This document shows positions 2,762 to 40,449 of a stretch of 64,000 nt of DNA, piece after piece (positions within the stretch are counted from its first letter, which is position 1; each line of letters starts with the position of its first letter). The stretch lies in the IMG/VR virus record IMGVR_UViG_3300020036_004254; one strand, written 5' to 3'. The position numbers and the translations under genes are program-made. This stretch comes from a virus. Lineage: Duplodnaviria > Caudoviricetes. A model generated the notes under the pieces. The model had not been told where the DNA came from. It worked only from the letters and a program-made list of their open reading frames with translations, and made no database searches.

Positions 2762-4656
2762 TGACTGACTTGCGCGTAACCGAACTAGATTTCGAGGCGA
2801 TTAAAACCAATCTTAAGAATTTCATGAGGGCACAGTCTGAGTTTTCAGACTATGATTTTGACGGGTCGGCGTTGAATGCGTTGTTAGATGTGTTGGCGTA
2901 CAACACCCACTATAACGCGATGTTGGCGCATTTGATGTCAAATGAAATGTTTATTGACACCGCTATCAAACGGTCGTCTGTCGTGTCTATCGCTAAAACA
3001 ATGGGGTACATCCCGCGTTCGTATTCGGCGGCAAGAGCTACAATCTCGTTAACCGTTCCTACAGACAGTCCACTTCCGATGACCGTGGACACCTCAACCA
3101 AATTCACCACCACCAAAAACGGAACTCCTTATACATTCAATGTTGAGGAATCGGTCACCGTCACCCCGGAAGCGATTAGCGGGGGATATCAGGCGGTGTT
3201 TCCAGAGGTGTTGTTGGTTGAAGGTACTCGTCTCCAAAATGCATTCACCGTGACGGCAGATAACCGACAGGGACCGTTTGTCATCCCCGTTGAAAATATT
3301 GATTTGTCAACCATCCGGGTTGTGGTGAAAACCTCTGCAAACGTGGAAGAATACACCGTGTTTACACGGTCGTTGACGGTTGTAGACGTTTCAGACACCA
3401 GTACCGTGTTTTGGGTAGAAGAGAATGCAGACGGGAAGTTTCAATTGATTTTTGGTGACGATGTCATTGGTGCCACGCTGGATGTGGGTAATATTGTCAC
3501 CGTGTACTATGTGGCGTGTAACGGGAGTACACCAAACGGGGTTCGCACGTTTACTCTTTCTGGTACAGTTGGCGGAACCTCTAATGTCACGATTACCACG
3601 GTTGATGTGGCTGGGGCTGGTGCGGAAAAAGAAACCATCGATAGCATTCGGTTTAATGCACCCAAGTTCAACAACACCAGAAATCGTGCGGTGACTGCTC
3701 AAGATTACAAGTCGTTGATTCTTGCAGATTCGAATATCAACTTCAAGGCCAATTCTATTTCCGTGTGGGGTGGAGAAGAAAACATCCCCCCGGTGTACGG
3801 AAAGGTCTTTATCACTATCGACCCAACAGATTCGTATCTTATCACGGATTCTGACAAAAAGTATATCATTGACCGAATTTTGCGTCCTCGAAGTGTCATG
3901 TCTATCCAACATGAGTTTGTAGACCCTGAGTTTATCTATTTGGGGTTTGATGTGGTCATTTCCTACAATGAAAACATCACCAACTTGTCTTCGACTGAGT
4001 TGACCGCGTTGGCACACGACCGTATCACAGAGTTCTTTTCTGAGAATCTCTCTACACTAGACCGAACCTTTTTCTTCTCACAGCTTGTTGATGCTATCAC
4101 CACCATCAACCCTGCCATTTTGGGTGTGTTGGTGAATATGCGTATTCAGAATCGTATTACAAAGCTGGCATCGTTTAACACAACCAAGAACCTTCGCTTT
4201 TTGGCTTCGTTAGAACCCGATAGCATTTCTAGTACAGTGTTTGTTTCTTTGGTAAACGGAATTTCGTACAACGCCTATATTAAAGATTTTCACGATGGCG
4301 TTATCAAAGACCCCACTGGGACTGGAACATTGAAGTTGTTGGAGGCGGACACCAACACCGTATTGGTGTCTGCATTGGGCACCGTTGACTACAAAACAGG
4401 CATTCTGTCCTTCTCAGATTTGAACATTTCTTCCTATCTGGGGAACATCACGGATGTTCGAATCAACGCCGTCCCACAGAGCCTTTCCAAGAACATTTCC
4501 CCCAGTGTGATTTCTGCAACCGAACAATCCACTAGCGCGGTGTTTCCGGCACCAGCAAAAAACATCATCATTGAGCTAGATGACAGCGAAATCAATACTG
4601 CTATCAAGCTAAACCCCGGGTTGAACATTACCACCATTCCGTTTAGCGAACTCTAA
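2761..4656 (+). CDS. gp6: Baseplate wedge subunit gp6
   Basis: '[12 protein letters not shown]...F.DYDF.GS.L..LLD.LAYNTHY' and 'RAVTAQDY...WGGEEN.PP.YGKVFI'. Confidence 0.95.
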
Positions 4657-7223
4657 TGTCTTCTTTCCGTCATAAGCTTCATCATTTTATTTCAGGACAA
4701 ATCCCGGATTACATCCGGGAGAACTATCCTATATTCGTATCTTTCGTTCAAGCCTACTACCTATTTCTTGAAGAAACGGGTGAGGCGAATGATGTGTTGC
4801 TGAACACGGATACGTGGATGGATATTGACCAAACGCTTGATGACTTCATTCCGCTGTTCCAAAAGCAGTACATGGGAAACATTCCCCAGAGTGCCATTGT
4901 TGACATCAAACGTCTTATTAAGTTTGTCAACGAATTTTACGAGGCCAAGGGGTCGGAAAACGGAACCGAATTGTTCTTCCGATTTATGTTTAATGATACC
5001 GCCAGTGTCAAATATCCGGGAGATAACCGTTTGGTGGCATCTGGTGGAAACTGGAAGCAACGAAAAAGCATCAAACTAGATACCGGAACGATTTCCACTG
5101 ACAACAACCCCTTCTTGATGAAGGGGCGAAAGATTTTTGTTGAGTATACCCTGTACGAAAATGGGGTGGGAAATGTTGTGTATCGGGTTCCCGTATCATG
5201 CCTTGATGTGGTTAAACTATCAGCACCAAACATTTATCGGTTGGATGTAGAACTATCAGATTCGGTCGTCTTCCCAGACACCGCGATTAGCACACACCCC
5301 TCCAACGAAGCGGAGACGGTGTACGACAGTCATTTGTATGTTTTGATGAATTTGACTTCTGACGAGGACATGCAGTTGGGTGTTGCCCCATCATGGAGTG
5401 CCTGTGGCACGTTGTCCAAGCAATTGGTAAGCATTAAGCGCATTGTAACTGGCGGAACAAACTTTCGTGTCGGTGAATCGTTTTATGTAAATGAAGGTGG
5501 AACCTCTGGTGAATATTTCGAGTTTGATGTGGATGTCCCGAGTGAATGGTATACATTAAACATTAGTGGAACCGACGCATATGTGTCTCCGTCACTCATG
5601 TTAAACAACGCCATCGTTCGTGTTCGGAATATTATTTCTGAGAATCTGGGTCCGTATTTTGCCCAGAACTACACGGTGGATTTGTTTGAAACATATACCA
5701 CCGAATCCAGAGATAGGCAAATTCGCCATCTTCAAATTGTTACTACAGGTCAGCGTTTTTCGGTTCGAGAATATTTCAACCCGAGATACTTCATTTCGTA
5801 TAGCGACCCGCTTGATGATTATTTGGCGGAATCAACCCCATCGTACAACTCGTATACATTTCCGATTGAGCTATTGGAAGATTCTGTTCCGGTCAGCGAA
5901 GTGAGTTTTGATTTTTACGCAAAAGATGCGGGTGAAATGGCCACGGTCATTTTTAACACGGGTTATGTGTATGTCGAACCCGGGCGTTATGTAGATAGCG
6001 TCAGTTTGTTGTCAGAAATGAATAAGTTGCAAGACAATTTCTTGTTTCAACCATATTCCTACACTGTCAAAACCCATCAGGGGTTTGATACGTGGAAAGA
6101 CGCATATACCAAATCAAATCACCCTGCTGGATTTATTCTTTTTGCCAACTTGAACATTGATGAGTTGACACCATTAGATGTTACGGTCGAATCGGTAGAT
6201 GTGGATGAAACGTTTGTTATTGTTAGCGCAACCCCATCTGTCACACCAACCCCGTCCATAACGTTAACACCGTCAGTTACCCCTTCGGTGACGCCGTCGA
6301 TTACACGAACCCCGTCGGTGACAGCTTCAGTTACCCCCACACCAACCCGCACTCCATCGATTACTGTCACCCCTTCGATAACACCAACTGTAACGGTAAC
6401 ACCGACCAGAAACGCTTCATCATCTGTGACGCCGACAGTCACCCCGTCGATTACCCGTACACCTTCGGTCACCCCGTCAATTACCCCATCGATTACCCGT
6501 ACACCTTCGGTCACCCCATCGATTACCGCTTCTACGACCCCAACGGTAACCCCGACGGCGACACGGGCCGCAACAGCTACTCCGTCTGTTACCCCATCGA
6601 TTACCCCAACGGTAACACGTTCGGTGTCGGTCACACCAAGTATTACCCCGTCAATAACCCCATCAGTTACCAGAACACCCTCGGTGACGCCGTCGATTAC
6701 ACGAACCCCGTCGGTGACACCGTCGATTACCCCGACTGTTACACCAACTCGTACTACATCAGCAACCCCTACCCCAACCCCTACCCCAACTGTTACCCCA
6801 ACTCCCACAATCACCACCATCTGTTATGTCACAGGGGATTTACTAACAGGCCCGGGTCAGGCATCATCAATTTTGGCGTGTGCATTGGGTGATACACTTG
6901 ATATTACAGTGTACACCGATGGTGCTTTGTTCTACAGTGATTTCCCGTGTAGTGGTGGGTTGGTCCTTGATGGGTATTACAAGACCGCTTCAAACGGTTG
7001 GATTCAGTACAGCGGTGGCTCTGTTATAAATAGTGGAAGTTGTGCTATCCCGCCAAGCCCATCAGTTACACCGACCCCGACCCCAACCCCTTCAGCGGGT
7101 TGCCCAGAGGTTGGAACTAATATTTGTCAGGGTATTGACTTGTACATTGCCGACGGTGCCTGTGGTTGGTCACAGATTTGCCCAGATAACATCGCTTGCG
7201 GTGGTACACAAAGTTGTTCATAA
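4656..7223 (+). CDS. gp7: Baseplate wedge initiator gp7-like, extended by a TPSV mucin-like stalk and a Cys-rich C-terminal module
   Basis: '[17 protein letters not shown]', 'FYEAKGSE....FFRF.F' and 'LQDN..FQ.YSY...HPAG' gp7 motifs; follows gp6; ~190 aa S/T/P repeat followed by a Cys-rich tail. Confidence 0.8.
6228..6810 (+). repeat. Coding (TPSV/TPSI)n repeat in gp7
   Basis: Visible in the translation; degenerate 12-nt period in the DNA. Confidence 0.95.
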
Positions 7224-7225
7224 CG

Positions 7226-7233
7226 TATAAATA
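7226..7233 (+). promoter_or_regulatory. T4-type late promoter TATAAATA
   Basis: Perfect consensus in the intergenic gap upstream of ORF 7258. Confidence 0.8.
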
Positions 7234-7257
7234 TCCCTATATCAACCACAGGCCACA

Positions 7258-9210
7258 ATGAAAAAACGTCCAAGTAGAGCAAGATTGGCAAGAATCGTTC
7301 CGGGTCCACCAGCCCCGGAACGGGTTACCAATGATGTGTTGATTGACGGGGTATGGTATCTGAACCAACCCCTTGCCCCGTCTCATACCCCATCAGTTAC
7401 CCCAACGCCTTCTATATTGATTTCGGTTTCTGTGACCCCGACGGTAACCCCGACGGTATCTGTGACTCCGTCCATCACCCCGTCGATTTCAATTTCTTCG
7501 ACACCATCGGTTACCCCGTCGGTAACTGCATCAGTCACCCCATCTATAACACCTTCTTCGTCGGCCAATGCCACCCCATCGGTGACCCCATCGGTAACAC
7601 CGTCGGTAACTGCGTCTGTGACGCCAAGCGTCACTCCATCTATTACTCGCACGGCCTCCGTGACACCATCGGTAACCCCATCGGTGACTCGTACCGCGTC
7701 GGTGACGCCAAGTGTTACCCCAAGTATCACTCCAAGTATCACTCCAACAATCACACCAAATGCGTCTACTTCTGTAACTCCAACAGTTACACGCACGGCT
7801 TCTGTGACTCCGTCTGTCACACCAACGAGAGACGCTTCGCCATCAGTGACACCAACGGTTACTCCGTCAATCACCTTGACACCGTCGGCTTCTCCTGATT
7901 TGGGCGCACCAGCGTTTAATGAAAGTTTCTTGGTTGCATCAGACACCAATGGGTCACCAGACGGAACAACCGCAAATCCGTTGACTATTACGGTGAAAGA
8001 CCTTCTTGGAAACTTGTTGTCCGGTGAAAGTGTATCCTACGACATTGAAAGAACGTTTGTGGATGCAGACCAAACCACTCTTACTGGCGATTTGCTCGAA
8101 ATTGAAACCACAACAGGTGTGTTGACACTAACGTTGCATATCAAGAACAGCGCGGGCGTCCCGCTCCCGGGTTGGGCAACCAAGGATATCATTTTCTCTG
8201 CAACGGGAACAGGAAATACCTTTACCCCAATCGACAGTATTTCTGACCGCAATGGTGATTATCGTGTTTCGTTCTCATCAACAGAAAATGAAGTGAAGAT
8301 TATCACTGTTTCTGTTAAGAATATTGCTATTACACAGAACTATTCCGTTGTAGTAACCACCCCGGGTGTTGTCACGCCACTCTTTTTCTCGGACTTCTCT
8401 ACAGCAACCGGAACTTCTTCTCTGGCACGTTCGGATAACAGTAAGTGGAACATTGTTGGTGATTTGACTATTATTGCAAACCCCGGAAACATCGGAATGC
8501 CGTCGAACATGGTCAACGTGGCACAAGTTCCGTGGTATCCTGTAGCGGGTGGTGGAGCAACAAACAGAAAGGGTGGTTTGACCGCCCCGTCTCCTGAAGG
8601 ATTGTCGTTGCCAAACCCGGGTGATTTACAATACTATAGATGGTACTATGAAAACGAACAACCCAATGGTACTGTTGACGAACAAACACACCCTGTACAA
8701 GACGGTGCCGCCGCTGGAACCCTGAACTGGGAACTTGCCGTGCGTAACGATGTGGACGGTGGATACTACGGAAACCAAATTCTTTTGAACTCTGCTGTAC
8801 TTGGGAATGTAAGAATCTTTCAATCGCCAAGATTAGATAAATTCAAAACATATCGGTATGAAGTTAAATTGACCGTGATTTCAACAACCGAATTTAAACT
8901 ATCTGTCAGAGTATATGATGAGGCAATAAGCACCATTGTTCCAATTTTGACGGATGCTGATTATGTCCAAACATCGCCGCTTGTTGGTTCACCACCGACT
9001 ATGGAAGAATATTTCGTTTCTCAAAATCATGTATTCTTGAATTTCGATTACGTTGAGGGATTGAACATTGGTGTAAACGATGGTGGTCAGGCTGGTGAAG
9101 AAGGTATTTACGGTCACCAAGGTGGTGTGGCCATTACAAGAAATACCGTATTGAATGAAACAGTTTGGGTGGGTCCATATGGAACAGTAAAGGGGGAAAA
9201 CAATGGCTAG
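7258..9210 (+). CDS. Putative virion adhesin/decoration protein A: conserved N-terminal motif, TPSV stalk, Big-1 (invasin-like Ig) domain, C-terminal beta-rich head
   Basis: N-terminus 'MKKR.SR...[18 protein letters not shown]', ~170 aa TPSV and an invasin-type Ig segment '[10 protein letters not shown]...D.NG...FSST..EVKIITV'. The head is paralogous to those of ORFs 10607 and 12041. Confidence 0.6.
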
Positions 9211-10606
9211 TCCAGTCCGGTCTACAACAGGTGATGTTGAACTCACATTTGATGCAACATTAGATGCGAGTGGAACAATTGTAACACAAGCATTTGACGC
9301 TGGGTCTGATGCGAATAGACATTTGTTGGCCATTATCACTTATGATGGTGCATCGTCGCATACATTAGGAGACACTTCTTGCGCGTATAACGGTGTTACT
9401 ATGTCCCCGTTAGGAGCATCTTTTGGTTCTGGTCAGTCCAGAACTCGTGTTTTTCAACTTATAAACCCAACCTCTGGCTCAAACGACTTCACTCTAGACC
9501 CAAGCGCGGGTGTTGGGTCAGAAGATGTTGTGATAACTCTTATGTGCAAATCAAATGTTGACCAAACAACTGCATATGAGAACTATGTTACCGCAACAGG
9601 AACAGATTCGTCAAACCCATATACATCAGCAGTGACCATTACATCTAGTGCGACTGATAGATTGGTGGTAACTGGTCATGCGGTACGTGCATCTTCTGTT
9701 ACAGGAGGAACAGCGACAAACTTCACAGAAAGAACAGATAACGTTAACGCCAACATAGGGTTGGTGACAGGCGAAGCGGCTGGCGCATCAAGCGTGGCAA
9801 CCAGTGTGGCGTGGGCAGGTGTTTTCGCAATTGATTATGGGGCATTTGGTATCAGTCTCGTTGGTATTAGCCCCGGGCCAACCATTACTTCAGAACCATC
9901 AAGTGCCGCCGTGGTGTTAAACAATGATACAAGAACCAGCGCAACATTTGTTGCAACGGCGGTTGGTACTGGTGATATCATTGGTCAGTGGCAAAAGGAA
10001 GGGGTAAACATTTCAAACGGCGGAATCTATTCTATCACAGAATCCCCCGCTGGTACGTTTACTTGTATTGTCACCCCAACCGACGCAACATTTGACGGTC
10101 AAACAATTACTTGTGAGTTAACTGACGATACCGGAACTAGAGAAACTGTTGGAGCGATACTCACCATTCTTAACGGACCAGAAGTAAATCCAACGTCGGG
10201 TTCTACTACTGCTGGTGTACACTCTACCGATTTGACGAGTGACGATGAATTGTTAGACGCAGGGGAGTGTTTGTTGATTAGCGGCAGAATTGCGGCAAGT
10301 GTGGTGGCGCGAACCATCACAAACCCCATGTATCCGTCTGTCACGCCTTCGTTGACCGCAACCCCATCGGTAACACCAAGTATTACCCCATCCGTGACGA
10401 GAACACCGTCGATTACCCCATCACTGACAGCAACACCAACTGTAACACCAACCCGTGATGCATCCCCAACACAGACGCCATCGGTGACACCAAGTATTAC
10501 GCCTACCATCACCAGAACACCATCGTTGACACCGAGTATTACCCCGTCAAGAAGCCCGTCAAGAACACCGACACCAACACCAACTCCGTCAACCAGCCGC
10601 CCCTAA
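9203..10606 (+). CDS. Putative virion protein with beta-sandwich domain, I-set Ig-like domain and C-terminal TPSV tail
   Basis: 'PTITSEP....ATF...A.GTG....QWQKEGVNI...ITCELTD' resembles an Ig I-set domain; the last ~90 aa are S/T/P repeats. Confidence 0.55.
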
Positions 10607-12040
10607 ATGAAAAAGAGACAATCTAGAGGTTCTATAGGGGGAGGGCGGGGTGGAAATGGTGGAAAACCCATTCTCAACCGTAGCGGAAATGATGTGTTGA
10701 TAGATGGGGTGTGGTATATCAACCAACCACTTGCTCCGTCTCGCACACCGAGCATAACCCCTACGGTCAGCACATCAGTTTCGGCCACCCCATCAGTCAC
10801 CCCATCTGTAACAAGAACTCCTTCTATTACCCCATCTATTTCTCTTAGTGTTACCCCAACGGCAACGCCGTCTGTAACACCAAGCATTACCCCGTCGGCA
10901 ACCCAAACACCCTCGGTGACGCCAAGTGTTACCCCAAGTGTTACCCCAAGTTCATCACAATTTGTCAGTCAGAGTGTGACCCCGAGTGTCACACCCTCCG
11001 TGACACCCAGCGTAACCGCTTCAGTAACACCATCGGTAACACGAACACCGTCTGTTACACCGAGTATTACTCCATCTATCACTAGAAGTGTTTCACCAAC
11101 AACAACGCCTTCTGTAACACCGACAATCACTCCTACCCCAACGAGGAACGCAAGTGTAACCCCAACTCCATCTATTACCCCAACTGTGGGCAGTGGACTT
11201 TGGACACCTGTATTCTTAGCGGATTGGGGAACTAGTACGGGAACTGGGACAACTGCGTTACGAGACGGTACAACATTCGATGCTCTTTCCCCGGCTTCTG
11301 CTGATAACGGTGAAGTCATAGCCGCTCCGGGTGGTTACGGGTGGAACACCGTTAACATTCTTCATCATTATTCAATCAATGATGCCAGAGCCGGATGGTT
11401 GGAGATTCAGAAAAATACATTGGGGGTACAAGCCGAAGGAGAAGTTCGCAACTTCCGATGGGCGCATGTAAACATTCACCCAACCGCCGCAGAAGGGGCA
11501 ACAGATAACTCGCATCATTGTATACAGGACGGATATCCGTCGGGTGCAGGTTCGTTTCAAAATTGGAACATCACAGACGGAACAAACTTTGTTGGAGAAT
11601 GGGAACCGAACTTTCTAATCTCTAACGGGGGTGGTGGACGGTACTATCTAAACTCTGCCGTGACGCCAACCCGTCTTAACAAAGACACGCGGTACACCTT
11701 TGAAGTACAAATTGTTAGAGGTACGACGGGGGCTGGTACGTCCAACGCATTCCGTTTCCGTGCGTGGATTTATGATGAAAATGGGGTGGAAATCTACGGA
11801 CCATCAGACTTTGTGTCCAATTTGTATTCAGGTGAGACTTTGGCCAATGACCGTTGGCACACGTACAACAATCTCAATGGAACTCAACAGTTTAACATTG
11901 GGTGTAACGGTGCGACTGCCACAAGCTATCCTCTCTCGGTTGGGTATTTTGGAGAAGTAGCAATGGTATCCAGTATCTCTGATGGGGATTTGACAGCGGG
12001 TACAGCTATTGGTGTATATGGAACATGTTCCGGAGAATAA
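10607..12040 (+). CDS. Putative virion adhesin/decoration protein B (same N-motif, TPSV stalk, variable head)
   Basis: 'MKKRQSRGS...[18 protein letters not shown]', then TPSV, then a head starting 'FLADWGTSTGTG..A..D'. Confidence 0.6.
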   Translation: MKKRQSRGSIGGGRGGNGGKPILNRSGNDVLIDGVWYINQPLAPSRTPSITPTVSTSVSATPSVTPSVTRTPSITPSISLSVTPTATPSVTPSITPSATQTPSVTPSVTPSVTPSSSQFVSQSVTPSVTPSVTPSVTASVTPSVTRTPSVTPSITPSITRSVSPTTTPSVTPTITPTPTRNASVTPTPSITPTVGSGLWTPVFLADWGTSTGTGTTALRDGTTFDALSPASADNGEVIAAPGGYGWNTVNILHHYSINDARAGWLEIQKNTLGVQAEGEVRNFRWAHVNIHPTAAEGATDNSHHCIQDGYPSGAGSFQNWNITDGTNFVGEWEPNFLISNGGGGRYYLNSAVTPTRLNKDTRYTFEVQIVRGTTGAGTSNAFRFRAWIYDENGVEIYGPSDFVSNLYSGETLANDRWHTYNNLNGTQQFNIGCNGATATSYPLSVGYFGEVAMVSSISDGDLTAGTAIGVYGTCSGE

Positions 12041-22181: not shown

Positions 22182-22189
22182 TATAAATA
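22182..22189 (+). promoter_or_regulatory. T4-type late promoter TATAAATA heading the glycosyltransferase operon
   Basis: Perfect consensus ~40 nt upstream of the GTG start at 22227, which has a GAGGAG RBS. Confidence 0.8.
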
Positions 22190-23477: not shown

Positions 23478-23484
23478 GGTTGTT

Positions 23485-25412: not shown

Positions 25413-25415
25413 CGT

Positions 25416-27011: not shown

Positions 27012-27012
27012 T

Positions 27013-30137: not shown

Positions 30138-30138
30138 C

Positions 30139-30792
30139 ATGCGTGAAAACACCGTTCCGGAAATCGCAAAAATCATCAACGAAGCCGTCACCCCAGTACT
30201 AATTTTGGTAGTGGGGAACGCTTGTAATGAGGAAACTCCTCGAATACAGGAAGACCTTGAAAAACGCATTCTAGAGGTCAATCGTGCGGTGGCAATGTTT
30301 ACCGTGTGTATGCCAGAAGGAAGCATTTCCTTCCCCAGACCACAGATTCCGGCGTTGTATTATTTCCTACCAAACAATCAAATCCCGGTGTTCTGGCGCG
30401 GAAATGATATGATTCAGCACATTGCACAAGACTTAGAAATTGTGGAAAAGATGTTCCTAGATGGTGTCTCGCACGAGGATGCCCGTTATGATGACACCAT
30501 GAAAACGCAGATTCGGGATACGGAAACTGCCTTTGCACAAGAAACCACAAAAGAATTTCCCCCAAAGCTCAAACAGGCTCGTAACTTCATCAAGGAAATG
30601 TGGACAACGGCACGACGGGGAATGAACAACCTCCCAGTAATCGCCACCGCAGAAGAAGGGGGAAGGAGATTGGATATTTGTGAAACTTGCCCAAGCTTCG
30701 AATCTTCATCAAATCGGTGTAAGGAGTGTGGGTGCGCCATGAATATCAAAACCCAGTTGGTGGCGTCTACTTGCCCATTGGGTAAATGGTAG
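30139..30792 (+). CDS. Hypothetical protein, possibly thioredoxin-like N-terminus, with C-terminal Cys cluster (CxxC...CxxCGC...CPLGKW)
   Basis: C-terminal 'RLDICETCP...RCKECGCAM..K......CPLGKW'; last gene of the tightly packed operon. Confidence 0.6.
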   Translation: MRENTVPEIAKIINEAVTPVLILVVGNACNEETPRIQEDLEKRILEVNRAVAMFTVCMPEGSISFPRPQIPALYYFLPNNQIPVFWRGNDMIQHIAQDLEIVEKMFLDGVSHEDARYDDTMKTQIRDTETAFAQETTKEFPPKLKQARNFIKEMWTTARRGMNNLPVIATAEEGGRRLDICETCPSFESSSNRCKECGCAMNIKTQLVASTCPLGKW

Positions 30793-31647: not shown

Positions 31648-31657
31648 TGGAGTATGA

Positions 31658-32809
31658 ATGTTAACTATCAACCGAAGTAAATACAAATCGGTAAACCTAG
31701 CCCACCTAGAACGCTATCTTGGTGCAGACAAAGTTGCACAGGTAAGTGCAAACATGAAAGGGTGGTATGGACCTCCGATTACGGTAGCGGGTGTTCCCGG
31801 GGCTGTGCAAGTGGGTCGGGACGGGGATTTTTGTGGAAAACTTAATGTTGGTGGAGAAGCGTCCAAGTGGGATTATGCTCATGACATTCTTCAGCGGTTG
31901 GAGAGAAAATTCCGTCGTGCTAGTTACCGAGAAATGAAGAATTTTCGCCTTTTGACAGGATTTTCTTCTATCGGTGACCTACTTTCCGAGGCGAGTACCG
32001 GAAAAACACAAATGCGTACATTCCAAAAAGTTGGTTCAACTGGCGTTGTTAACGTAGCGTCTTCATTGTGGCGACAGGGCAACTTGCCTTCAGCGGGTGG
32101 CGTTGCGTCAGCCGCCCCGGGTGGTCGTGCGCCAACGGATGCTACAACAGGTGCTTTTGTGTTCAACAACGCCTCTGGTGCAGACACCCTGCACTTTGTC
32201 TCGGCCTTTATAACAGCAAGCGTTGCGGCAAATACGCTATTATTGTACGATAGAATTTTTGATGTGGCCAAGACGATGAACTCTACTACCGCAGAATCCG
32301 TTACGGGTGTTCCTACGCGATATCAGTCATCAACATCAACAGACCAAGACTATGCTGGCGGAAACTTCTGCTTCCCAGAAGTAGGTGGAACCGCGCTCGC
32401 CAACACCGCGCACAACTGGACAGTGTGTCAGTATCGAAATCAAGCGGGGACGGACGCACAATCATTTCCGTCGGCAACGGGTGTGGCACAGGCTATCGTG
32501 GACCGTTTGGACCTTCTACCCGGATATTGGTTCATGCCTCTCGCCGCTGGTGATACAGGAGTTATGGACCTCCATCAGATGCAATGTTCTGCGGCTGTAG
32601 CAACTGGTGTCATTAACTTTGTTATTGGACACCCTCTTGCGATTATTCCATGTCCAGTCGCCAACCTTGTCGCGCCAACAGACGGATTGCGCGGACCTTT
32701 CCAAGTCTCTAGAATTTTTGATGATGCGTGTTTGGCACTTCTGGAACTTCCAAAACCCGCCACCACAGCCACCACATATAGCGGTGTGATAAACTTAGTT
32801 TCCGGGTAA
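31658..32809 (+). CDS. Hypothetical, probably structural, beta-rich protein
   Basis: 383-aa ORF with GGAG RBS inside the late module; A/T/G-rich; no family confidently recognised. Confidence 0.55.
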   Translation: MLTINRSKYKSVNLAHLERYLGADKVAQVSANMKGWYGPPITVAGVPGAVQVGRDGDFCGKLNVGGEASKWDYAHDILQRLERKFRRASYREMKNFRLLTGFSSIGDLLSEASTGKTQMRTFQKVGSTGVVNVASSLWRQGNLPSAGGVASAAPGGRAPTDATTGAFVFNNASGADTLHFVSAFITASVAANTLLLYDRIFDVAKTMNSTTAESVTGVPTRYQSSTSTDQDYAGGNFCFPEVGGTALANTAHNWTVCQYRNQAGTDAQSFPSATGVAQAIVDRLDLLPGYWFMPLAAGDTGVMDLHQMQCSAAVATGVINFVIGHPLAIIPCPVANLVAPTDGLRGPFQVSRIFDDACLALLELPKPATTATTYSGVINLVSG

Positions 32810-32814
32810 TATAG

Positions 32815-34893
32815 ATGTTTTTTGATGGTGGGTTTTTTTTCGACGGTAACGGAACAACCCCCCTTGATTATGAGGGGTTGTTGCCGTTAGAAGACGCGAT
32901 ATCACCTTCTCCGTCCCCAACCCCGACCGTCACCCCAACAATAACTCCATCGATAACCCCCTCTTCAAGTGAAGGGGGGGCACCGTCTGTTACCCCTAGC
33001 GTTACCCCATCAGTAACGAGTACCCCATCCGTTACACCTTCTGTTACTCCAAGTGTTACGCCATCGGTTACTCCGTCGGTCACACGCACCCCCAGTGTTA
33101 CTCCATCGGTGACACCGAGTATTACACCGAGTATTACAGCAACACCGTCGGTCACACCGTCTGTAACTCCGTCGGTGACACCGAGTATTACAGCAACACC
33201 GTCAGTCACCCCTTCTGTAACGCCGTCGGTCACACCGAGTATCACAGCAACACCGTCGGTTACACCTTCTGTTACTCCGTCGGTCACACCAAGTATTACG
33301 GCAACCCCGTCTGTTACTCCGTCAGTAACACCGTCGGTCACACCGAGTGTCACCCCTTCTCAAAGTGTTGCGGCTGAACCATCGGTCACGCCTTCTGTTA
33401 CGCCAAGTGTCACATCAACCCCTTCTGTAACACCGTCGGTCACTTCAAGTGTATCCGTAACGCCGAGTGTTACACCAAGCATTACCCCATCGATTACCCC
33501 GTCGGTCACTAGTACGTCAAGTGTCACCCCATCTGTAACACCAAGTATTACTTCAACACCGAGTGTCACCCCATCTGTGACACCATCGGTCACCCCGAGT
33601 GTCACAGCAACACCGTCTGTCACACCGTCGGTAACCCCGTCTATTACACCAAGTGTTACCAGAACACCGAGCGTTACACCAAGTGTCACACCGAGTATTA
33701 CGTCGAGTGTCACCCCAACGGCATCAATCACCCCAAGCATTACCCCATCGATTACCCCGTCGGTCACTCGTACACCGAGTGTCACCCCATCGGTGACACC
33801 ATCGGTAACTCCTAGCATTACGGTAACATCAAGCGTTACACCAAGTGTCACACCAAGTATTACACTTTCAACATCATCGACCCCATCAGTAACCCCGTCG
33901 ATAACACCAAGCATCACCAGAACCCCAAGTGTCACGCCAAGTATTACATCAAGCGTGACACCAACGGCATCAGTCACCCCATCTGTCACCCCGAGTATCA
34001 CTCCGTCCGTTACTCGCACACCGAGTGTCACCCCAAGTATCACTTCATCGGTTACCCCGTCGATAACACGGACCCCGTCTGTTACAGCGTCGGTCACGCC
34101 TTCAATCACAGCCAGTGTCACCCCAAGCGTCACCCCGTCCGTTACCCGCACCCCGTCTGTTACGGCGTCGGTCACCCCAAGCGTTACCCCAAGCGTTACC
34201 CCATCGATTACCCCGTCTGTCACTCGCACCCCGAGTGTCACCCCAAGCATCACAACGAGCGTCACCCCATCAATTTCTTCGACGGCGTCGGTCACCCCAA
34301 CACCGTCGGTCACCCCATCGATAACCCCATCGGTTACCCCAAGTATCACAGTTTCGGTCACCCCATCAATCTCTTCGACTGCATCGGTAACACCGAGTAT
34401 CACCCCTTCAATAACAGCTTCAGTTACCCCGTCGGTGACTGCGAGTGTCACCCCGTCAGTTTCCGTCACACCAACGCCAACCGCGTCGGTGACCCCAAGT
34501 ATTACCCCAACCGTTACCGCCACACCGAGTATTACCCCCTCAATAACATTAAGTGTTACACCAAGTGAAACACCTTCTGTTTCGGCAACACCGTCTGTCT
34601 CAACAACCCCTTCAGTCACCCCGTCTGTTACCCCAACCGTTACCCCAAGTATCACCCCAACGGTTACTCCGTCTGTCACGCTCACCCCATCGATTACCCC
34701 GTCTACATCAAGTTTTTCTGAACCACAGTTTGTCCCGGTCAAACTAGAAGAATTGTTGAATGTCGATGCATTGACCCATGGGTTAGACGATGATTTTTCT
34801 CTTGTATATGACGAGGAAACACAAACATGGAAAACCAAGAGTATTCGGGATATTCGAATTCAAACTCTAAATGTCGATGGCGGCAGTTTTTAA
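32815..34893 (+). CDS. Mucin-like protein: ~600 aa of (TPSV/TPSI)n with a short C-terminal putative anchoring domain
   Basis: Translation is almost entirely S/T/P/V/I. The C-terminal ~55 aa are paralogous to ORF 31158 and end DGGSF. Confidence 0.8.
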   Translation: MFFDGGFFFDGNGTTPLDYEGLLPLEDAISPSPSPTPTVTPTITPSITPSSSEGGAPSVTPSVTPSVTSTPSVTPSVTPSVTPSVTPSVTRTPSVTPSVTPSITPSITATPSVTPSVTPSVTPSITATPSVTPSVTPSVTPSITATPSVTPSVTPSVTPSITATPSVTPSVTPSVTPSVTPSQSVAAEPSVTPSVTPSVTSTPSVTPSVTSSVSVTPSVTPSITPSITPSVTSTSSVTPSVTPSITSTPSVTPSVTPSVTPSVTATPSVTPSVTPSITPSVTRTPSVTPSVTPSITSSVTPTASITPSITPSITPSVTRTPSVTPSVTPSVTPSITVTSSVTPSVTPSITLSTSSTPSVTPSITPSITRTPSVTPSITSSVTPTASVTPSVTPSITPSVTRTPSVTPSITSSVTPSITRTPSVTASVTPSITASVTPSVTPSVTRTPSVTASVTPSVTPSVTPSITPSVTRTPSVTPSITTSVTPSISSTASVTPTPSVTPSITPSVTPSITVSVTPSISSTASVTPSITPSITASVTPSVTASVTPSVSVTPTPTASVTPSITPTVTATPSITPSITLSVTPSETPSVSATPSVSTTPSVTPSVTPTVTPSITPTVTPSVTLTPSITPSTSSFSEPQFVPVKLEELLNVDALTHGLDDDFSLVYDEETQTWKTKSIRDIRIQTLNVDGGSF
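32901..34710 (+). repeat. Longest coding TPSV repeat tract (~1.8 kb)
   Basis: Degenerate 12-nt period with highly varied synonymous codons. Confidence 0.95.
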
Positions 34894-34910
34894 CATTATA
34901 GGAGAAACAT

Positions 34911-35033
34911 ATGTTTTTAGTGTACATCGGAGGGGTATGGGTTTCTAAACCCATCAAAGTTTTTATCAATGGGGTGTGGGTCCAAAAGCCCTTAAAGCGA
35001 TTTGTCGGCGGCGTTTGGACGCTTTCGTCATAA
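34911..35033 (+). CDS. Unannotated 40-aa protein with three (Y/F)xxGVW repeats
   Basis: Read by hand as MFLVYIGGVWVSKPIKVFINGVWVQKPLKRFVGGVWTLSS. Strong RBS (AGGAG) and it fills the gap before gp13. Confidence 0.7.
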   Translation: MFLVYIGGVWVSKPIKVFINGVWVQKPLKRFVGGVWTLSS

Positions 35034-35036
35034 ATA
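35029..35036 (+). promoter_or_regulatory. Late promoter variant CATAAATA
   Basis: Upstream of gp13, overlapping the stop of the 40-aa ORF. Confidence 0.6.
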
Positions 35037-35063
35037 CAGCATAACCATTTACAGGATATCAAC

Positions 35064-36056
35064 ATGCCAGCCTTACCAAGTGTAACCCCCACGCCTGTTC
35101 ACATGTCTACCCGCCAGCAATTAAAGGATTATTGCTTGCGCCGTTTGGGTGCGCCTGTCATTGAAATCAACGTAGACGACGACCAAGTGGAAGACCGTAT
35201 TCAAGACGCGATTGAGTTGTTCCAAGAATACCATTTTGATGGAACAGAACGCATGTATTTGAAATGCTTGATTGAAGCATCTACATTGGAGTTTACCACA
35301 CCGGATGCCAATCTCTTTATTAATGGAGAAATCATTACAGGGGCAACGTCAGGGGCAACGGCCAAGGTCTATGATGTGCCTTCGTCTACAACGATTCGCC
35401 TGAAACAGACACAGGGGACGTTTGAAGCAGGGGAGACGATTTCTGGTGGAACCAGTGGGGCCACGGTAACCGCCAGCGTCTTCACCCTCAAGAACTGGGA
35501 CCAGCAATATTTGGAGATTGCCGACGCCGTGTTGGGTGTCAACCGCATCTTTATTTTGGGTCCGGGCACGGCAGGAATGAACACCCGTAACATCTTCGAT
35601 GTGGTGTATCAGTTTCGCTTGAATGACATGTACGATTTGATGTCCACCGACCTGATTTATTACGCGCAGGTCAAACAGCATTTGTCGTTGTTGGATATGA
35701 TGTTGCCGGGAGAACGGTCTATTCGTTTCAACCGTAAGTTGGACCGTTTGTACATCGATGTGAACTGGCCAGAAATTCTCACCCCGGATACTTACATTAT
35801 AGCAGAATGCTATAGATTGGTGGACCCAGAAGAGTTCACCAAGGTCTATAATGATTTGTTCATCAAGCGATACGCCACCGCGTTGATTAAGCGGCAGTGG
35901 GGAAATAACATGAAGAAGTTTCAAGGGATTGAACTCCCGGGTGGAGTAAAGTTAAACGGGAAGGAAATCTATGACGAAGCGGTAGAAGAAATTGCGAAGA
36001 TTGAACAGGAAATGCAAGAACGATACGAATTACATCCATTTTTCGAGGTGGGGTAG
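35064..36056 (+). CDS. gp13: Neck protein gp13
   Basis: 'R..LKDYCLRRLG.PVIEINVD.DQ.EDRI..A...F.EYH.DG' and 'K.YATALIKRQWG.N..KF.G..LPGG..LNG'. Confidence 0.95.
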   Translation: MPALPSVTPTPVHMSTRQQLKDYCLRRLGAPVIEINVDDDQVEDRIQDAIELFQEYHFDGTERMYLKCLIEASTLEFTTPDANLFINGEIITGATSGATAKVYDVPSSTTIRLKQTQGTFEAGETISGGTSGATVTASVFTLKNWDQQYLEIADAVLGVNRIFILGPGTAGMNTRNIFDVVYQFRLNDMYDLMSTDLIYYAQVKQHLSLLDMMLPGERSIRFNRKLDRLYIDVNWPEILTPDTYIIAECYRLVDPEEFTKVYNDLFIKRYATALIKRQWGNNMKKFQGIELPGGVKLNGKEIYDEAVEEIAKIEQEMQERYELHPFFEVG

Positions 36057-36060
36057 AGAA

Positions 36061-36663
36061 ATGTTTTTTTTCACCTATAAGACCACCAATTTAGTCAACG
36101 GCAAGTACTACTTCGGACGCCATTCTTCTGTGAGTTTAGAGGATGGGTATCTGGGGTCTGGAATAGCCCTAAAAAATGCGGTTAAAAAATATGGGGTAGA
36201 AAACTTTCAACGTGAAATTCTCGCATTTTATCCCACAAAAGAATCTCTTGTAGAAGCGGAAAAAGAACTCATTAAAGAAGAAGTTGTAAATGATAAGATG
36301 TCATACAACATGAAAATTGGTGGCTGGGGTGGAAGTTCTTCAGAGGAATGGACTCAAGAAAGGAGAAATAATCATTCTATGCTTGCAAAAGAAAGAATGA
36401 AAAGTGCTGAGCTGAGAAAAGGTGTATCAGAACGGGCTAAAAAAATGTGGCAAGATGGTAAAGGCATAACTCCACCAAACGTGAGTGGAATAAAACGTTC
36501 TGATGAAACAAAAGGAAAAATAAGTAAGTCTCACAAAGGGATGAAAAAGAAGTGGGTCACGAATACCTCTAAAAAGGGAACAAAACATTCAGAAGAAACG
36601 CGAAGAAAAATGTCAGAATCTCGCAAAAGGTTTTTAGAAAGAAAGGATTTGAATGTCTACTAA
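36061..36663 (+). mobile_element. Free-standing GIY-YIG homing endonuclease (Seg-like) with NUMOD3-type repeats
   Basis: 'YKTTNLVNGKYY.G.H...DGYLGSG..L..A.KKYG.ENF.REIL', 'YN...GG.GG' and 'G.K(R/H)S(D/E)ET..K.S' x2. Visibly more A-rich than its flanks and overlaps the gp14 start. Confidence 0.9.
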
Positions 36664-37387
36664 TTTTTATTTTCAATCTGGTACCAACATTGGGACCACC
36701 AACGAACAGCGGTTGGTGGAAGATTTGATTATTGAAGCCATTCAGATTAAGGGTCACGATATCTATTACATGCCAAGAACGTCGGTCACCCCGGACCACA
36801 TATTGGGCGAAGACATCATGAGTCGCTTTACCCAAGTCTATCCGATTGAAATGTATCTGAACAACGTTCAGGGGTGGGAAGGGGATGGGGAGTTGATGTC
36901 AAAGTTTGGTATTCAGGTAACAGACCAAGCAACGTTCGTGGTGTCGAAAAGACGATGGGAAGATGCGATTGCGTCTCAGACGGATGATTTACAACTTCCG
37001 CTTCGCCCTGCTGAAGGGGATTTGTTGTACTTTCCAAAGACCAAAGCCTTTTTTGAAATCAAGTTTGTCAACCACTTGGACCCGTTTTTCCAACTGGGAA
37101 AGTTTTACGTGTATTCTCTTCAGTGTGAGTTGTACCAGTATAGTTCAGAAACTATCAACACCGGAAATGAAGAGATTGATGAGCGAGCGGCAGAGAAAAC
37201 ACAGGATATATTCGACTTCCGATTTCTTACACAGACAGGCGGCGTATTGTTGACACAAAGCGGAACGCCTCTGATTTTGGCGTCAAGTTCACAGGTTGAA
37301 GACTCGTTTGACGATACAACACCGTTCCAGACCGAAGCAGAGGATGTTGTTGATTTTGACGTAATAGACCCGTTTGGGGAGTTTTAA
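36653..37387 (+). CDS. gp14: Neck protein gp14
   Basis: 'EQ.L.EDL.IE.I...G.D.YY.PR', 'SKFG....D', 'RP.EGDL.YFP....FEIKFV....PF.QLGK' and terminal 'PFGE'. Confidence 0.95.
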   Translation: MSTNFYFQSGTNIGTTNEQRLVEDLIIEAIQIKGHDIYYMPRTSVTPDHILGEDIMSRFTQVYPIEMYLNNVQGWEGDGELMSKFGIQVTDQATFVVSKRRWEDAIASQTDDLQLPLRPAEGDLLYFPKTKAFFEIKFVNHLDPFFQLGKFYVYSLQCELYQYSSETINTGNEEIDERAAEKTQDIFDFRFLTQTGGVLLTQSGTPLILASSSQVEDSFDDTTPFQTEAEDVVDFDVIDPFGEF

Positions 37388-37389
37388 CC

Positions 37390-38193
37390 ATGTTTAAGCA
37401 CAAGCACTTCTATCATCAGCACATTAGAAAAGCGATTATTGCATTTGGCACGTTGTTCAACGGTATTTACGTAGACCGTAGTGACGAAACAGATACACTC
37501 ACCAAACGTATCAAAGTTCCGTTGTCATATGTGCCAAAACAGAAATTCATTGCGCGTATTGGCGCGGCTCCGGATTTGGAAGGTGGTCGTACTGCGTTTG
37601 AAGTGGTCTTGCCACGTATTGGGTTTGAGATTAAGGGTCTTGAATATGATAGTAAACGGAAACTTGCTATCACACAAAAAGTTAAATCGGTCCAGACTGA
37701 CGGAAGTTTAAAACACGCATTTACGTCAACCCCATACAATCTCAAAATTGATATGAGCGTGTACGCCAAAAATCAGGACGATGGGTTGCAAATCCTCGAA
37801 CAAATTCTCCCCCATTTCAATCCAGACTTTAACGTCTCTGTGAATGAAATCCCCTCCCTTGGGGTGTCCAGAGATTTGCAGTTTGTGTTGGACGGAATAG
37901 AACTCGAAAACGAGTATGAAAGCGATTTCAAAGAACGAGTCAAGGTGATTTACAATCTTCACTTCACAATTAAAATCAACTTCTTTGGATTTGTTGATGA
38001 CGCAAGCATCATTAAGAGAACAATCATCAACATTTTGACCGATTCTGAGTTGGTCAATGGTGTCGTTCCGACTGGAACGCTCAACGGTGAACGAATCACC
38101 ACAACCACAGACCCCTATGGGGCAGACCCAACATCTGATTATACCTATGTGGTAGAATTTGATAACATTTACTTTGGTGAACCGGAAGTATAA
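37390..38193 (+). CDS. gp15: Tail sheath stabiliser/completion protein gp15
   Basis: 'FYH..IRK.I.AFGTLFN', 'KVPL.Y.PKQKF', 'LPR..FE....YD..RK' and 'QILEQILP.F.P'. Confidence 0.95.
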   Translation: MFKHKHFYHQHIRKAIIAFGTLFNGIYVDRSDETDTLTKRIKVPLSYVPKQKFIARIGAAPDLEGGRTAFEVVLPRIGFEIKGLEYDSKRKLAITQKVKSVQTDGSLKHAFTSTPYNLKIDMSVYAKNQDDGLQILEQILPHFNPDFNVSVNEIPSLGVSRDLQFVLDGIELENEYESDFKERVKVIYNLHFTIKINFFGFVDDASIIKRTIINILTDSELVNGVVPTGTLNGERITTTTDPYGADPTSDYTYVVEFDNIYFGEPEV

Positions 38194-40449
38194 ATGAAAA
38201 GACCAAATCGTTCTTCCACTCTTGTATCGACAGGAAGTCCAAAGACTATATTCCCAAAAATAAACGTCTCCGACATTTTCGTTGACGGTGAATGGTATTT
38301 GTACCCATCGGCAACCCCAAGTCCCACCCCGTCAACTACTGTGTCAGTGTCGGTGTCAGGAACACCAACGCCTACAACAACCCCTTCAATGACGAGAGGG
38401 GCATCACCATCGGTTACCCCGTCAGCCACCCCTTCTATTTCTGTTTCTACAACACCGACTCCAACCGCCTCGGTGTCGTTGACTCCATCACGAACCCCGT
38501 CAGTGACTCCGTCGCGTTCAGCGTCCCCGTCTCCATCCGTGACCCCGTCGATTACACCTTCAATTACGCGAACCGCGAGTGTGACACCATCGGTGACGCC
38601 TTCTATCACGGTTTCTACGTCTGTCACCCCGTCGGTTACGCCTTCGATTACGCGAACCGCTTCTGTCACGCCGTCAATTACTATTACCCCATCGATTACA
38701 CCGTCTGCCACACGAACCCCATCCGTAACACCAACCGCGACACCAACTCCGACACAAAATGCGTCGGTTTCAGTGACGCCGTCCGTAACGCCTTCGATTA
38801 CGGTTTCTACGTCTGTCACCCCGTCCGTAACCCCGTCGATTACGGTTTCTACGTCTGTCACCCCGTCGGTGACGCCTTCGATTACGGTTTCAAGAACGCC
38901 TTCCGTCACACGCACCCCCTCAATCACACCAAGTGTTACACGGTCGGTGACCCCGTCGGTGACTCCGTCCATCACAAGAACACCATCGGTCACACCATCG
39001 GTCACACCATCAATAACGGTATCTCGGTCGGCAACACCATCCGTGACGCCATCCGTTACCGCTTCCGTGACGCCATCGATAACGGTTAGCCCGTCGGTCA
39101 CGCCGTCAATCACCCCATCGATAACGGTTAGCCCGTCGGTCACACCGTCGGTCACGCCATCAATAACGGTTTCGAGAACACCATCGGTGACCCCATCCAT
39201 CACCCGTTCGGTGTCAGTAACACCAACTCCGTCGATAACACGTACTCCGTCTGTTACTCCATCCATCACACCGTCTATCACTCGCAGTGTATCAGTCACG
39301 CCGTCAGTGACCCGCACCCCAAGTGTTACTCCAACCGTTACACCAACAGCAACCATCACAACTATTTGTTACGTGACCGGAATGGTGTTGACTGGTCCGG
39401 GTCAAGTATCATGGGATGCCGCCTGTGCATTAAGTAGTACAGGAGATACGACCGTTTATACAGATGGGGTATTGTTTTATAGTGACTTCCCATGTAGTGG
39501 TGGGTTAGTGCTAGACGGATATTACAAGACGGTTGATAACGGGTGGGTATATTACATTAACGGTGTATATACTGATAACAATACCTGCGGTGTCGCACCA
39601 TCCCCATCACCCACCGCTACACCATCAATCACCGCCACTCCATCGGTGACTCCATCCATCACCCCAACCCCGTCGGTGACACCATCGGTGACCCCGTCGG
39701 TGACACCATCGGTGACCCGTACCGCGTCGGTGACCCCGTCTGTGTCACAGACACCTAGCGTTACGCCAAGCATCACCCCTTCTATTACCCGCACACCATC
39801 GGTAACCCCGTCGGTAACCCCGTCGGTAACCCCGTCGGTAACCCCAACCGTTACACGTACATCAAGTGTGACTCCATCGGTAACCCCGTCGGTAACCCCG
39901 AGTATTACGAGAACACCGAGCGTCACACCAAGTATTACCCCTTCAACAACCAGAACTCCTTCTGTGACACCAAGTAGAACACCTTCTGTCACACGTACTC
40001 CATCGATAACCCCAACGGTCACCCCAACGGCCACCATCACCACTATTTGTTATGTGACTGGTGCATCTTTGACTGGACCGGGACAAGCATCATCGGCACT
40101 CGCGTGTGCATTGAGCGACACGCTGGATATTGAAGTATATACCGATGGGGTGTTGTTCTACAGCGACTTCCCGTGTAGTGGTGGGTTGGCTCTAAATGGA
40201 TACTACAAGACGGACGCCAATAGTTGGGAGCGATATGTGTCTGGTGAACTTATAAGTACTGGTAGTTGCGTGATTCCGCCGTCACCGTCCGTCACCCCAA
40301 CAGTGACCCCAAGCGCATCAGCAGGGTGTCCTGATTTTGGGACAAATATTTGTCAGGGTATTGACTTGTACATTGCTGATGGTGCCTGTGGCTGGTCGCA
40401 AATCTGTCTGAACAACACCGCGTGTGGCGGTACTACAGAATGTTCTTAA
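38194..40449 (+). CDS. Mucin-like protein D: related N-motif, two TPSV stalks, two copies of the gp7 Cys-rich module
   Basis: N-terminus 'MKRPNRSS...SDIFVDGEWY'; two 'ITTICYVTG...GPGQ...AC...[10 protein letters not shown]' modules; same terminal '[25 protein letters not shown]' as gp7. Confidence 0.75.
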   Translation: MKRPNRSSTLVSTGSPKTIFPKINVSDIFVDGEWYLYPSATPSPTPSTTVSVSVSGTPTPTTTPSMTRGASPSVTPSATPSISVSTTPTPTASVSLTPSRTPSVTPSRSASPSPSVTPSITPSITRTASVTPSVTPSITVSTSVTPSVTPSITRTASVTPSITITPSITPSATRTPSVTPTATPTPTQNASVSVTPSVTPSITVSTSVTPSVTPSITVSTSVTPSVTPSITVSRTPSVTRTPSITPSVTRSVTPSVTPSITRTPSVTPSVTPSITVSRSATPSVTPSVTASVTPSITVSPSVTPSITPSITVSPSVTPSVTPSITVSRTPSVTPSITRSVSVTPTPSITRTPSVTPSITPSITRSVSVTPSVTRTPSVTPTVTPTATITTICYVTGMVLTGPGQVSWDAACALSSTGDTTVYTDGVLFYSDFPCSGGLVLDGYYKTVDNGWVYYINGVYTDNNTCGVAPSPSPTATPSITATPSVTPSITPTPSVTPSVTPSVTPSVTRTASVTPSVSQTPSVTPSITPSITRTPSVTPSVTPSVTPSVTPTVTRTSSVTPSVTPSVTPSITRTPSVTPSITPSTTRTPSVTPSRTPSVTRTPSITPTVTPTATITTICYVTGASLTGPGQASSALACALSDTLDIEVYTDGVLFYSDFPCSGGLALNGYYKTDANSWERYVSGELISTGSCVIPPSPSVTPTVTPSASAGCPDFGTNICQGIDLYIADGACGWSQICLNNTACGGTTECS
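39799..39845 (+). repeat. 12-bp perfect tandem repeat (tcggtaaccccg) x~4
   Basis: Directly visible; encodes SVTP x4. Confidence 0.9.

Follow-up and report, generated by a model that had tools for sequence, protein, structure and literature searches.

The window analysed here, the whole 64-kb stretch (64,000 nucleotides) of the Caudoviricetes record IMGVR_UViG_3300020036_004254 from IMG/VR, carries a late structural module of the T4 type. Within this module, a tightly packed operon with two glycosyltransferase (GT) genes of the GT60 type lies among eight genes for proteins with long Thr/Pro/Ser tracts (Table 1), an arrangement that probably represents a phage-encoded system for the mucin-type O-glycosylation of its own structural proteins. 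Every long open reading frame (ORF) of the window is on the plus strand, and the matches to T4-type structural proteins follow a T4-like order, with gp5, gp6, gp7, gp8, gp14, gp15, the terminases and the sheath all present. The T4 late promoter consensus TATAAATA occurs eight times, where 1.2 copies are expected, always on the plus strand and mostly just before late genes.

Tracts were scored as 30-residue windows with at least 70% Thr, Pro and Ser. Both strands of the window were scored: exactly eight ORFs, all on the plus strand and in the late module, contain them, and the remaining ORFs have none. The tracts are of the Thr/Pro/Ser/Val(Ile) type, (TPSV/TPSI)n, and add up to 1,946 residues; a sequence-only reading of this DNA had described the same eight proteins and more than 1,500 tract residues. 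Since all the synonymous codons are in use and the DNA-level tandem repeats are mostly imperfect (65-90% matches), the periodicity is largely maintained at the protein level. The window DNA is matched nearly wholly by contigs of one wastewater metagenome run, and partly by two other wastewater/digester runs. Contigs of the wastewater DNA run end within tracts (33500-34330 and 38820-39950) and one contig links 34214 to 39922, so the exact tract lengths and the order of the tract blocks may be affected by repeat-driven assembly ambiguity.

Around the tracts, several recurrent modules were found. An N-terminal tag, MK(K)R..R...(N/S)D(V/I)(L/F)(I/V)DG.WY, is common to the four tract proteins starting at 7258, 10607, 12041 and 38194, and may serve all four as a peptide that docks them onto the particle. 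The tag (7258-7380, 10607-10730, 12041-12160 and 38194-38310) is basic and ends in DG(V/E)WY directly ahead of the tract. Three of these four proteins finish with a C-terminal head domain of about 270 residues (8350-9210, 11189-12040 and 12638-13462), modelled with a predicted local distance difference test score (pLDDT) of 87 as a concanavalin-like jelly roll, whose nearest folds are polysaccharide lyases of families PL36, PL20 and PL14 and calreticulin-type lectin domains. An Atlas search with the head domain yielded no usable family. Homologues of the head, 55-65% identical, are the C-terminal domains of surface proteins bearing lipoprotein or twin-arginine translocation (TAT) signals (P0123, P0130 and P0138), one of them labelled Gemmatimonadaceae by NCBI. 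A small Cys-rich module (TTICYVTG...GYYKT) follows the tract of the gp7-like protein (6816-7223) and is found twice in ORF 38194 (39361-39600 and ~40000-40449), with a further stretch, 21950-22173, listed among these modules. Comparable small Cys-containing modules alternate with tracts in proteins encoded upstream of GT60 genes in other phages (loci L011, L048, L059 and L085). No Pfam domain was found for the Cys-rich modules, for the heads of the stalked proteins or for these upstream tract proteins of other phages.

The tract proteins had all been taken as virion proteins in the sequence-only reading. For the gp7-like wedge protein, homology points to a baseplate location, so that one tract would be anchored there; for the other seven, a place in the virion is suggested by their position in the late module. 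Neither the tract proteins nor the enzymes contain a hydrophobic segment of the kind expected for a membrane span or a signal peptide, and the enzymes would be soluble and presumably cytoplasmic.

The genes of the enzyme operon, from 22227 to 30792, abut or overlap, and they stand behind a perfect copy of TATAAATA, as had been noticed from the sequence alone. Scans of the operon for sigma-70 promoters and terminators gave nothing above shuffled expectation. The proposal of further GT domains behind the GT60 pair held in part: the HtrL_YibB match is clear and one GT2 match lies at the cut-off, the second GT2 match (27013-27861) remaining below it. Likewise, two of the three methyltransferase domains proposed reach the Pfam threshold, the FkbM-type domain (25416-27011) and the class I S-adenosylmethionine (SAM) domain (27861-30137), and the third (24738-25412, E 0.04) is not significant. 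The GT2-like ORF is open from 26839, and comparison with relatives places its likely start at ~27013. The fusion protein at 27861-30137 is conserved beside GT60 genes in loci L003-L006 and L008-L010. Searches of PDB sequences with the proteins for glycan extension and methylation gave no informative match, and megablast of the operon against the phage collection gave none at all. Parts of the operon are represented at low depth among contigs from the RNA libraries of a wastewater study; these were discarded as evidence of transcription, as only contigs are available and DNA carry-over is possible.

Both transferases match the PF11397 profile far above its cut-off of 21 bits (220 bits for transferase 1 and 176 bits for transferase 2). 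In an alignment of 25 homologues including both paralogues, D94, H96, H231 and a G-E-E motif are invariant and S95 is nearly so, which agrees with the two PF11397-like enzymes with a DSH metal motif expected by the sequence-only reading. The polypeptide alpha-N-acetylglucosamine (GlcNAc) transferases that initiate mucin-type O-glycosylation in Dictyostelium and Trypanosoma cruzi make up the GT60 family, and all the characterised GT60 enzymes act on hydroxy-amino acids of polypeptides, mucin-like domains included (PMC8724618). The main difference from GT27, the polypeptide N-acetylgalactosamine (GalNAc) transferases, is the lack of a ricin-like domain in GT60 (PMC8724618).

The AlphaFold model of transferase 1 (pLDDT 90.6, predicted template modelling score 0.87) shows a Rossmann-like GT-A core, and all its best Foldseek matches are polypeptide GalNAc-transferases. 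After re-alignment, the top 29 PDB entries all belong to GT27, aligned over model residues 1 to ~320 with Z scores of 19-22.6 over ~265 residues and a root-mean-square deviation (rmsd) of ~3.3 Å, against Z scores of at most 17 for generic GT-A enzymes. The best single match is GalNAc-T2 (Z 22.6, 265 residues, rmsd 3.3), and the kinship with GT27 advanced before modelling is thus borne out by the fold. From the aligned ranges, D94, H96 and H231 are predicted to be equivalent to the metal ligands of GalNAc-T2. This kinship is visible by fold only, since searches of PDB chains with the GT60 protein and with profiles of it gave no match. The C-terminal beta domain (residues ~310-416; 23150-23477) lies outside PF11397 and contains invariant W343, F384 and W396. 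It is placed where animal GalNAc-transferases carry their ricin lectin domain, and it was not matched to the lectin domain in the GT27 alignments.

The family is large, with 4,938 proteins at E <1e-10 in a metagenome protein collection and members on at least 598 IMG/VR contigs; in the cultured-phage collection it is present only in four jumbo phages. The association of enzyme and tract across genomes was analysed in 83 GT60-centred IMG/VR loci (±10 kb), with 80 TerL-centred loci from related T4-like phages as controls (62-69% TerL identity, 0.93 Mb). TerL was used to centre the controls since a query with the giant DUF4815 protein, intended for syntenic controls, gave one contig only. Of the 83 GT60-centred loci, 38 have a tract ORF no farther than 10 kb away, compared with none of the 80 controls (p 4e-14), which also lack GT60 genes. 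The ORF directly upstream of the GT60 gene is itself tract-bearing in 22 of 83 loci, compared with 42 of 1,140 other ORFs (odds ratio 9.4, p 1e-11). These upstream proteins of other GT60 phages are very large repeat proteins interspersed with small Cys-containing domains.

The association is retained in 14 of 27 clusters when the enzymes are de-replicated at 70% identity. A three-unit TPx DNA pattern occurs in 25 of 49 GT60 records, including all nine of those at least 90% complete, against 1 of 38 control records and none of the four complete ones. In the reverse direction, PF11397 was found in 10 of 46 viral records picked solely by a TPS(V/I) repeat pattern and in 1 of 38 controls. With respect to the window, TerL of the nine near-complete GT60 genomes is 69% identical in one and 31% in another, shows no detectable similarity in six and has no accepted match in the last; a tenth, partial GT60 record has a TerL 32% identical. 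As TerL spans the range from 69% identity to undetectable similarity, the pairing is not one clade counted repeatedly. The co-occurrence of GT60 genes and tracts anticipated by the sequence-only reading is therefore strong in phages, and it extends to bacterial genomes.

The GT60-type enzymes also have bacterial homologues, 35-48% identical, which come from at least 184 species; Gemmatimonadota, Verrucomicrobiota, Acidobacteriota, Pseudomonadota and Bacteroidota are among the groups represented. Of 80 bacterial loci that have a homologue, 51 include a tract ORF at a distance of 8 kb or less, often immediately before the enzyme gene. The head homologues described above, GT60 homologues on Gemmatimonadaceae contigs and the wastewater origin of the DNA hint at a host among the Gemmatimonadota, and the presence of the heads in Gemmatimonadaceae-type surface proteins is suggestive of gene flow with a likely host.

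The closest relatives illustrate how enzymes and tracts vary. In the nearest contig, IMGVR_UViG_3300045973_000170, the proteins are 61-87% identical and the whole operon is in the same place; the gp7 tract and the small tract protein before the operon are also kept, and there are no stalked proteins between gp7 and gp8. Tract-bearing homologues of the latter small protein (21577-22173 in the window) occupy the same slot in loci L008, L009 and L010. The homologue of ORF 32815-34893 in the closest relative (L010, 18980-19240) is a tract-free protein of 86 amino acids that matches the 50-residue C-terminal domain. In the window, ~615 tract residues are inserted between a short N-terminal stretch and this conserved domain, and, judging from the comparison, this looks like gain or expansion of a tract in a small structural protein.

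In other relatives the GT60 pair and the methyltransferase/HtrL fusion persist, and an epimerase/dehydratase, GT7-like and GT10-like enzymes or a carbamoyltransferase have been swapped in, depending on the relative. In L005 (12474-18379), the slot between pair and fusion contains an NAD-dependent epimerase/dehydratase together with GT7-like, GT10 (fucosyltransferase-like) and carbamoyltransferase genes, a gene content that suggests lineage-specific glycans. Because relatives retain the GT60 pair, exchange other genes and differ in their tracts, a stable initiating core can be distinguished from an extension set that varies, as does the number of candidate acceptors. This pattern would fit a standing set of enzymes serving changeable acceptors. 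The window stands out for how many candidate acceptor proteins it has within a T4-type structural module, for its perfect late promoter and for a close relative that displays the gain of a tract.

Table 1. Features of the 64-kb window, in order of position (aa, amino acids; nt, nucleotides).
Feature	Position	Strand	Evidence and remarks
gp5 hub/lysozyme	404-2347	+	T4-type structural match
gp6	2761-4656	+	T4-type structural match
gp7-like baseplate wedge protein, 855 aa	4656-7223	+	phrog_17744 baseplate wedge E 9e-36; PF23786; tract of 203 residues (~525-722); C-terminal Cys-rich domain
T4-type late promoter TATAAATA	7226-7233	+	ahead of the stalked-protein block
Stalked protein 1	7258-9210	+	N-terminal tag, tract of 151 residues, Big_1 Ig-like domain, jelly-roll head
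467-aa protein	9203-10606	+	C-terminal Thr/Pro/Ser tract of 91 residues
Stalked protein 2	10607-12040	+	N-terminal tag, tract of 154 residues, head domain
Stalked protein 3	12041-13462	+	N-terminal tag, tract of 164 residues, concanavalin-like jelly-roll head (residues 200-473; head model at pLDDT 87)
gp8	13500-15191	+	T4-type structural match
DUF4815 protein, 1,838 aa	15197-20713	+	
Fibre-tip protein with Peptidase_S74 chaperone domain	20914-21576	+	
198-aa tract protein	21577-22173	+	tract of 62 residues, Cys-containing C-terminal domain; between the Peptidase_S74 fibre-tip gene and the enzyme operon
T4-type late promoter TATAAATA of the enzyme operon	22182-22189	+	perfect match; the GTG start at 22227 follows after 45 nt, an interval that contains a GAGGAG ribosome-binding site
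GT60-type transferase 1, 416 aa	22227-23477	+	PF11397 E 8.4e-65; GT-A domain, D94-S95-H96, H231; extra C-terminal beta domain
GT60-type transferase 2, paralogue, 38% identical	23467-24741	+	PF11397 E 2e-51; invariant motif columns shared
224-aa conserved protein, function not assigned	24738-25412	+	Methyltransf_24 E 0.04, non-significant; kept in L006, L008 and L010
FkbM-type methyltransferase/GT2 fusion	25416-27011	+	PF05050 E 4e-5 (23.0 against cut-off of 22.7 bits); PF00535 E 7e-5 (23.3 against 23.3)
GT2-like protein	27013-27861	+	PF00535 E 0.0014, below cut-off; L008 homologue of 283 aa
758-aa class I SAM methyltransferase and HtrL/YibB-like fusion, C-terminal third unassigned	27861-30137	+	PF13489 E 1e-7; PF09612 E 2.6e-15 (57 bits)
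225-aa protein with C-terminal Cys-rich zinc-ribbon-like end	30115-30792	+	conserved at the operon end
692-aa protein, 89% tract	32815-34893	+	615 tract residues, 50-residue C-terminal domain
Neck proteins (gp13-like, then gp14, gp15)	35064-38193	+	
751-aa protein	38194-40449	+	between gp15 and small terminase; N-terminal tag, three tract blocks (506 residues), two copies of Cys-rich domain
Both terminase subunits	40465-42529	+	
Sheath	42669-44576	+	

It is proposed, with a probability of about 0.65, that this operon directs a phage-encoded, cytoplasmic mucin-type O-glycosylation of the phage's own Thr/Ser tracts, the glycan being then extended and methylated. Late in infection, the operon would be transcribed together with the structural genes. 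The two soluble GT-A enzymes would use a UDP-sugar of the host, most likely UDP-GlcNAc by family precedent, and transfer a first sugar (by the same precedent, alpha-GlcNAc) in the cytoplasm onto Thr/Ser of the (TPSV/TPSI)n tracts. The acceptors, to which the conserved adjacency and co-occurrence point indirectly, would be the gp7-like wedge protein, the three stalked proteins with jelly-roll heads and the four others, and the two paralogues may split the work by site or by prior glycosylation, as the isoforms of GalNAc-transferases do. Extension of the glycan would fall to the GT2-like and HtrL/YibB-like domains, and its modification to the FkbM-type and class I methyltransferase domains. Baseplate and neck would thereby gain extended stalks or filaments with dense glycosylation, carrying jelly-roll heads or Cys-rich modules. 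The benefit could lie in stiffening, in protease resistance or in masking.

A broader proposal, for which the odds seem about even, is that this is one case of a general pathway of mucin-type O-glycosylation in bacteria and phages, not previously described, in which soluble GT60-type enzymes and swappable extension cassettes act in the cytoplasm on long Thr/Pro/Ser tracts of surface or virion proteins. In the phage of the window, the tracts would have spread into at least eight structural proteins, giving a bottle-brush coat on baseplate, fibres and neck.

Phage glycosyltransferases are best known for the modification of DNA and of host serotype, according to PMC12619734. The operon could accordingly make or alter a glycan that is not attached to protein (host lipopolysaccharide, capsule, a lipid-linked sugar or phage DNA), the tracts being flexible linkers in the same module. 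HtrL/YibB, GT2 and FkbM-type domains are indeed typical of polysaccharide and lipopolysaccharide clusters, and the epimerase/dehydratase, GT10-like enzyme and carbamoyltransferase added by relatives point in the same direction. Such a role is nevertheless rather unlikely, since it leaves unexplained why tract ORFs immediately precede GT60 genes in bacteria and unrelated phages alike, and the operon provides no membrane segment for a lipid-linked pathway. GT60 members are not known to act on DNA or lipid. Moreover, the DNA glucosyltransferases of T4 are early genes, so a late promoter suits the modification of virions better than the protection of DNA.

A protein target other than the tracts is also conceivable. 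The founding enzyme of the family, Gnt1, around which PF11397 was built, is a cytoplasmic GlcNAc-transferase that modifies a single site, a hydroxyproline of Skp1, and in the same style the phage enzymes might modify one or a few specific sites on another phage or host protein, with no bulk modification of tracts. This is unlikely: no oxygenase domain was found in the operon by Pfam domain search, the statistical link is to long tracts specifically, and two paralogous initiators with several extending enzymes look excessive for one regulatory site. That the tracts are modified by host enzymes or not at all, co-occurrence reflecting shared ancestry or co-transfer of a fibre module, seems very unlikely. 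A host copy could exist, as bacterial genomes carry the same enzyme family beside tract proteins, and the 55-65% identity of the head homologues shows gene flow with a likely host; yet the association persists across phage lineages without detectable TerL similarity and after de-replication, and the closest relative retains the enzymes while tract number and length differ. Compared with glycosylation of the tracts by the phage's own enzymes, each of these alternatives gives a poorer account of the conserved adjacency of enzyme and tract across bacteria and unrelated phages.

Several points weigh against this glycosylation of the tracts. Thr/Pro linkers are unglycosylated in many proteins. The candidate enzymes for extension and methylation are assigned from domain matches at or below curated cut-offs. 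About half of the GT60 loci have no tract within 10 kb, and 36 of the 46 tract-bearing records show no GT60, figures that are not decisive as most of these records are fragments. The bacterial count of 51 of 80 is somewhat inflated by spurious Pro/Ser/Thr-rich frames in high-GC DNA. In the jumbo phage XacN1, the C-terminal 1,047 residues of the giant protein ORF325 contain only short PT linkers, and the glycoprotein bands of its virions were not tied to named proteins, nor was the enzyme family named (PMC5852040). Finally, for this phage and its close relatives the support comes from sequence, a fold model and co-occurrence, and the proposed activity is a prediction.

The best-characterised relatives of the enzymes are eukaryotic. 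With the GT60/PF11397 enzymes of Dictyostelium and Trypanosoma cruzi and with Gnt1, those of the window share a strong profile match, the GT-A fold and the Asp-x-His motif with a distal His; a ricin-type lectin domain is missing in both, and the candidate acceptors are Thr/Ser/Pro-rich, as in the mucin-type glycosylation of protists (PMC8724618). They differ in being encoded by phages and bacteria and in being predicted to be soluble, whereas the mucin-type enzymes of protists are Golgi membrane proteins, and in carrying the extra conserved C-terminal beta domain of ~100 residues. The GT27 polypeptide GalNAc-transferases of animals and apicomplexans provide the closest solved folds at only 13-15% sequence identity; in contrast to them, the window enzyme has no ricin lectin domain, probably transfers GlcNAc rather than GalNAc, and would work with no secretory pathway.

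Among viruses, the closest parallel is found in mycobacteriophages, in which phage-encoded glycosyltransferases act on the phage's own virion proteins, as proposed here; phage-encoded virion glycosylation in this group is mentioned in PMC12619734. There, the glycans are reportedly at the C-termini of capsid and tail-tube subunits, whereas very long repeat tracts on baseplate, fibre and neck and initiation of GT60 type are proposed for the window. In the literature reached, mycobacteriophages are the only phages with documented glycosylation of their own particles, and for XacN1 there is a hint of it. Freeman et al., in Cell Host Microbe in 2023, are said to have described mycobacteriophage glycosyltransferases that modify the phages' own structural proteins in the host cytoplasm. 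Chloroviruses and mimiviruses likewise glycosylate capsid or fibril proteins with machinery that they encode themselves and that does not depend on secretory glycosylation by the host; they differ in being giant viruses of eukaryotes with other enzyme families, linkages and acceptors.

The four cultured jumbo phages with homologues (XacN1, Xoo-sp13, Stenotrophomonas CM1 and RAS14) encode enzymes 37-41% identical over 97% of their length, beside other sugar-modifying genes. XacN1 ORF334 is the GT60 homologue of that phage (39% identical over 97% of its length), present as a single gene, in contrast with the pair of the window, and its nearby giant protein differs from the tract proteins in the short linkers mentioned above. 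At least two protein bands of XacN1 virions are periodate-Schiff-positive, and the authors suggest that the two glycosyltransferases of the phage make them (PMC5852040). This staining is supportive of the reading proposed here, in a loose way.

Full-text searches of the literature found no paper linking GT60 or PF11397 to phages. What would be new is the GT60-type variant, phage-encoded virion glycosylation as such being already known from mycobacteriophages. Mucin-type initiation by enzymes of GT60 or GT27 type is regarded as eukaryotic. If the proposal is true, at least several hundred environmental phage contigs and bacteria of several phyla use a GT60-type family on dedicated repeat tracts, which would bear on the origin of eukaryotic mucin-type glycosylation. 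It would also bear on the construction of phage fibres, on protease resistance, on the presentation or mimicry of glycans and on recognition by antibodies or hosts, and these soluble enzymes would serve as tools for attaching sugars to designed Thr/Pro/Ser tags in bacteria.

In the rest of the window, TerL is ~48% identical to its best cultured-phage matches, which are from cyanophages, a pelagiphage and a Stenotrophomonas phage. Two ORFs of the minus strand, 33360-34838 and 38169-39359, were rejected as genes, being mirror frames of the repeats. The matches of ORF 31658-32809 are restricted to uncharacterised phage proteins. A homing-endonuclease-like ORF (phrog_314, E 2e-42) lies at 35992-36663, where it separates the gp13-like neck gene from the gp14 gene and overlaps the end of the former.

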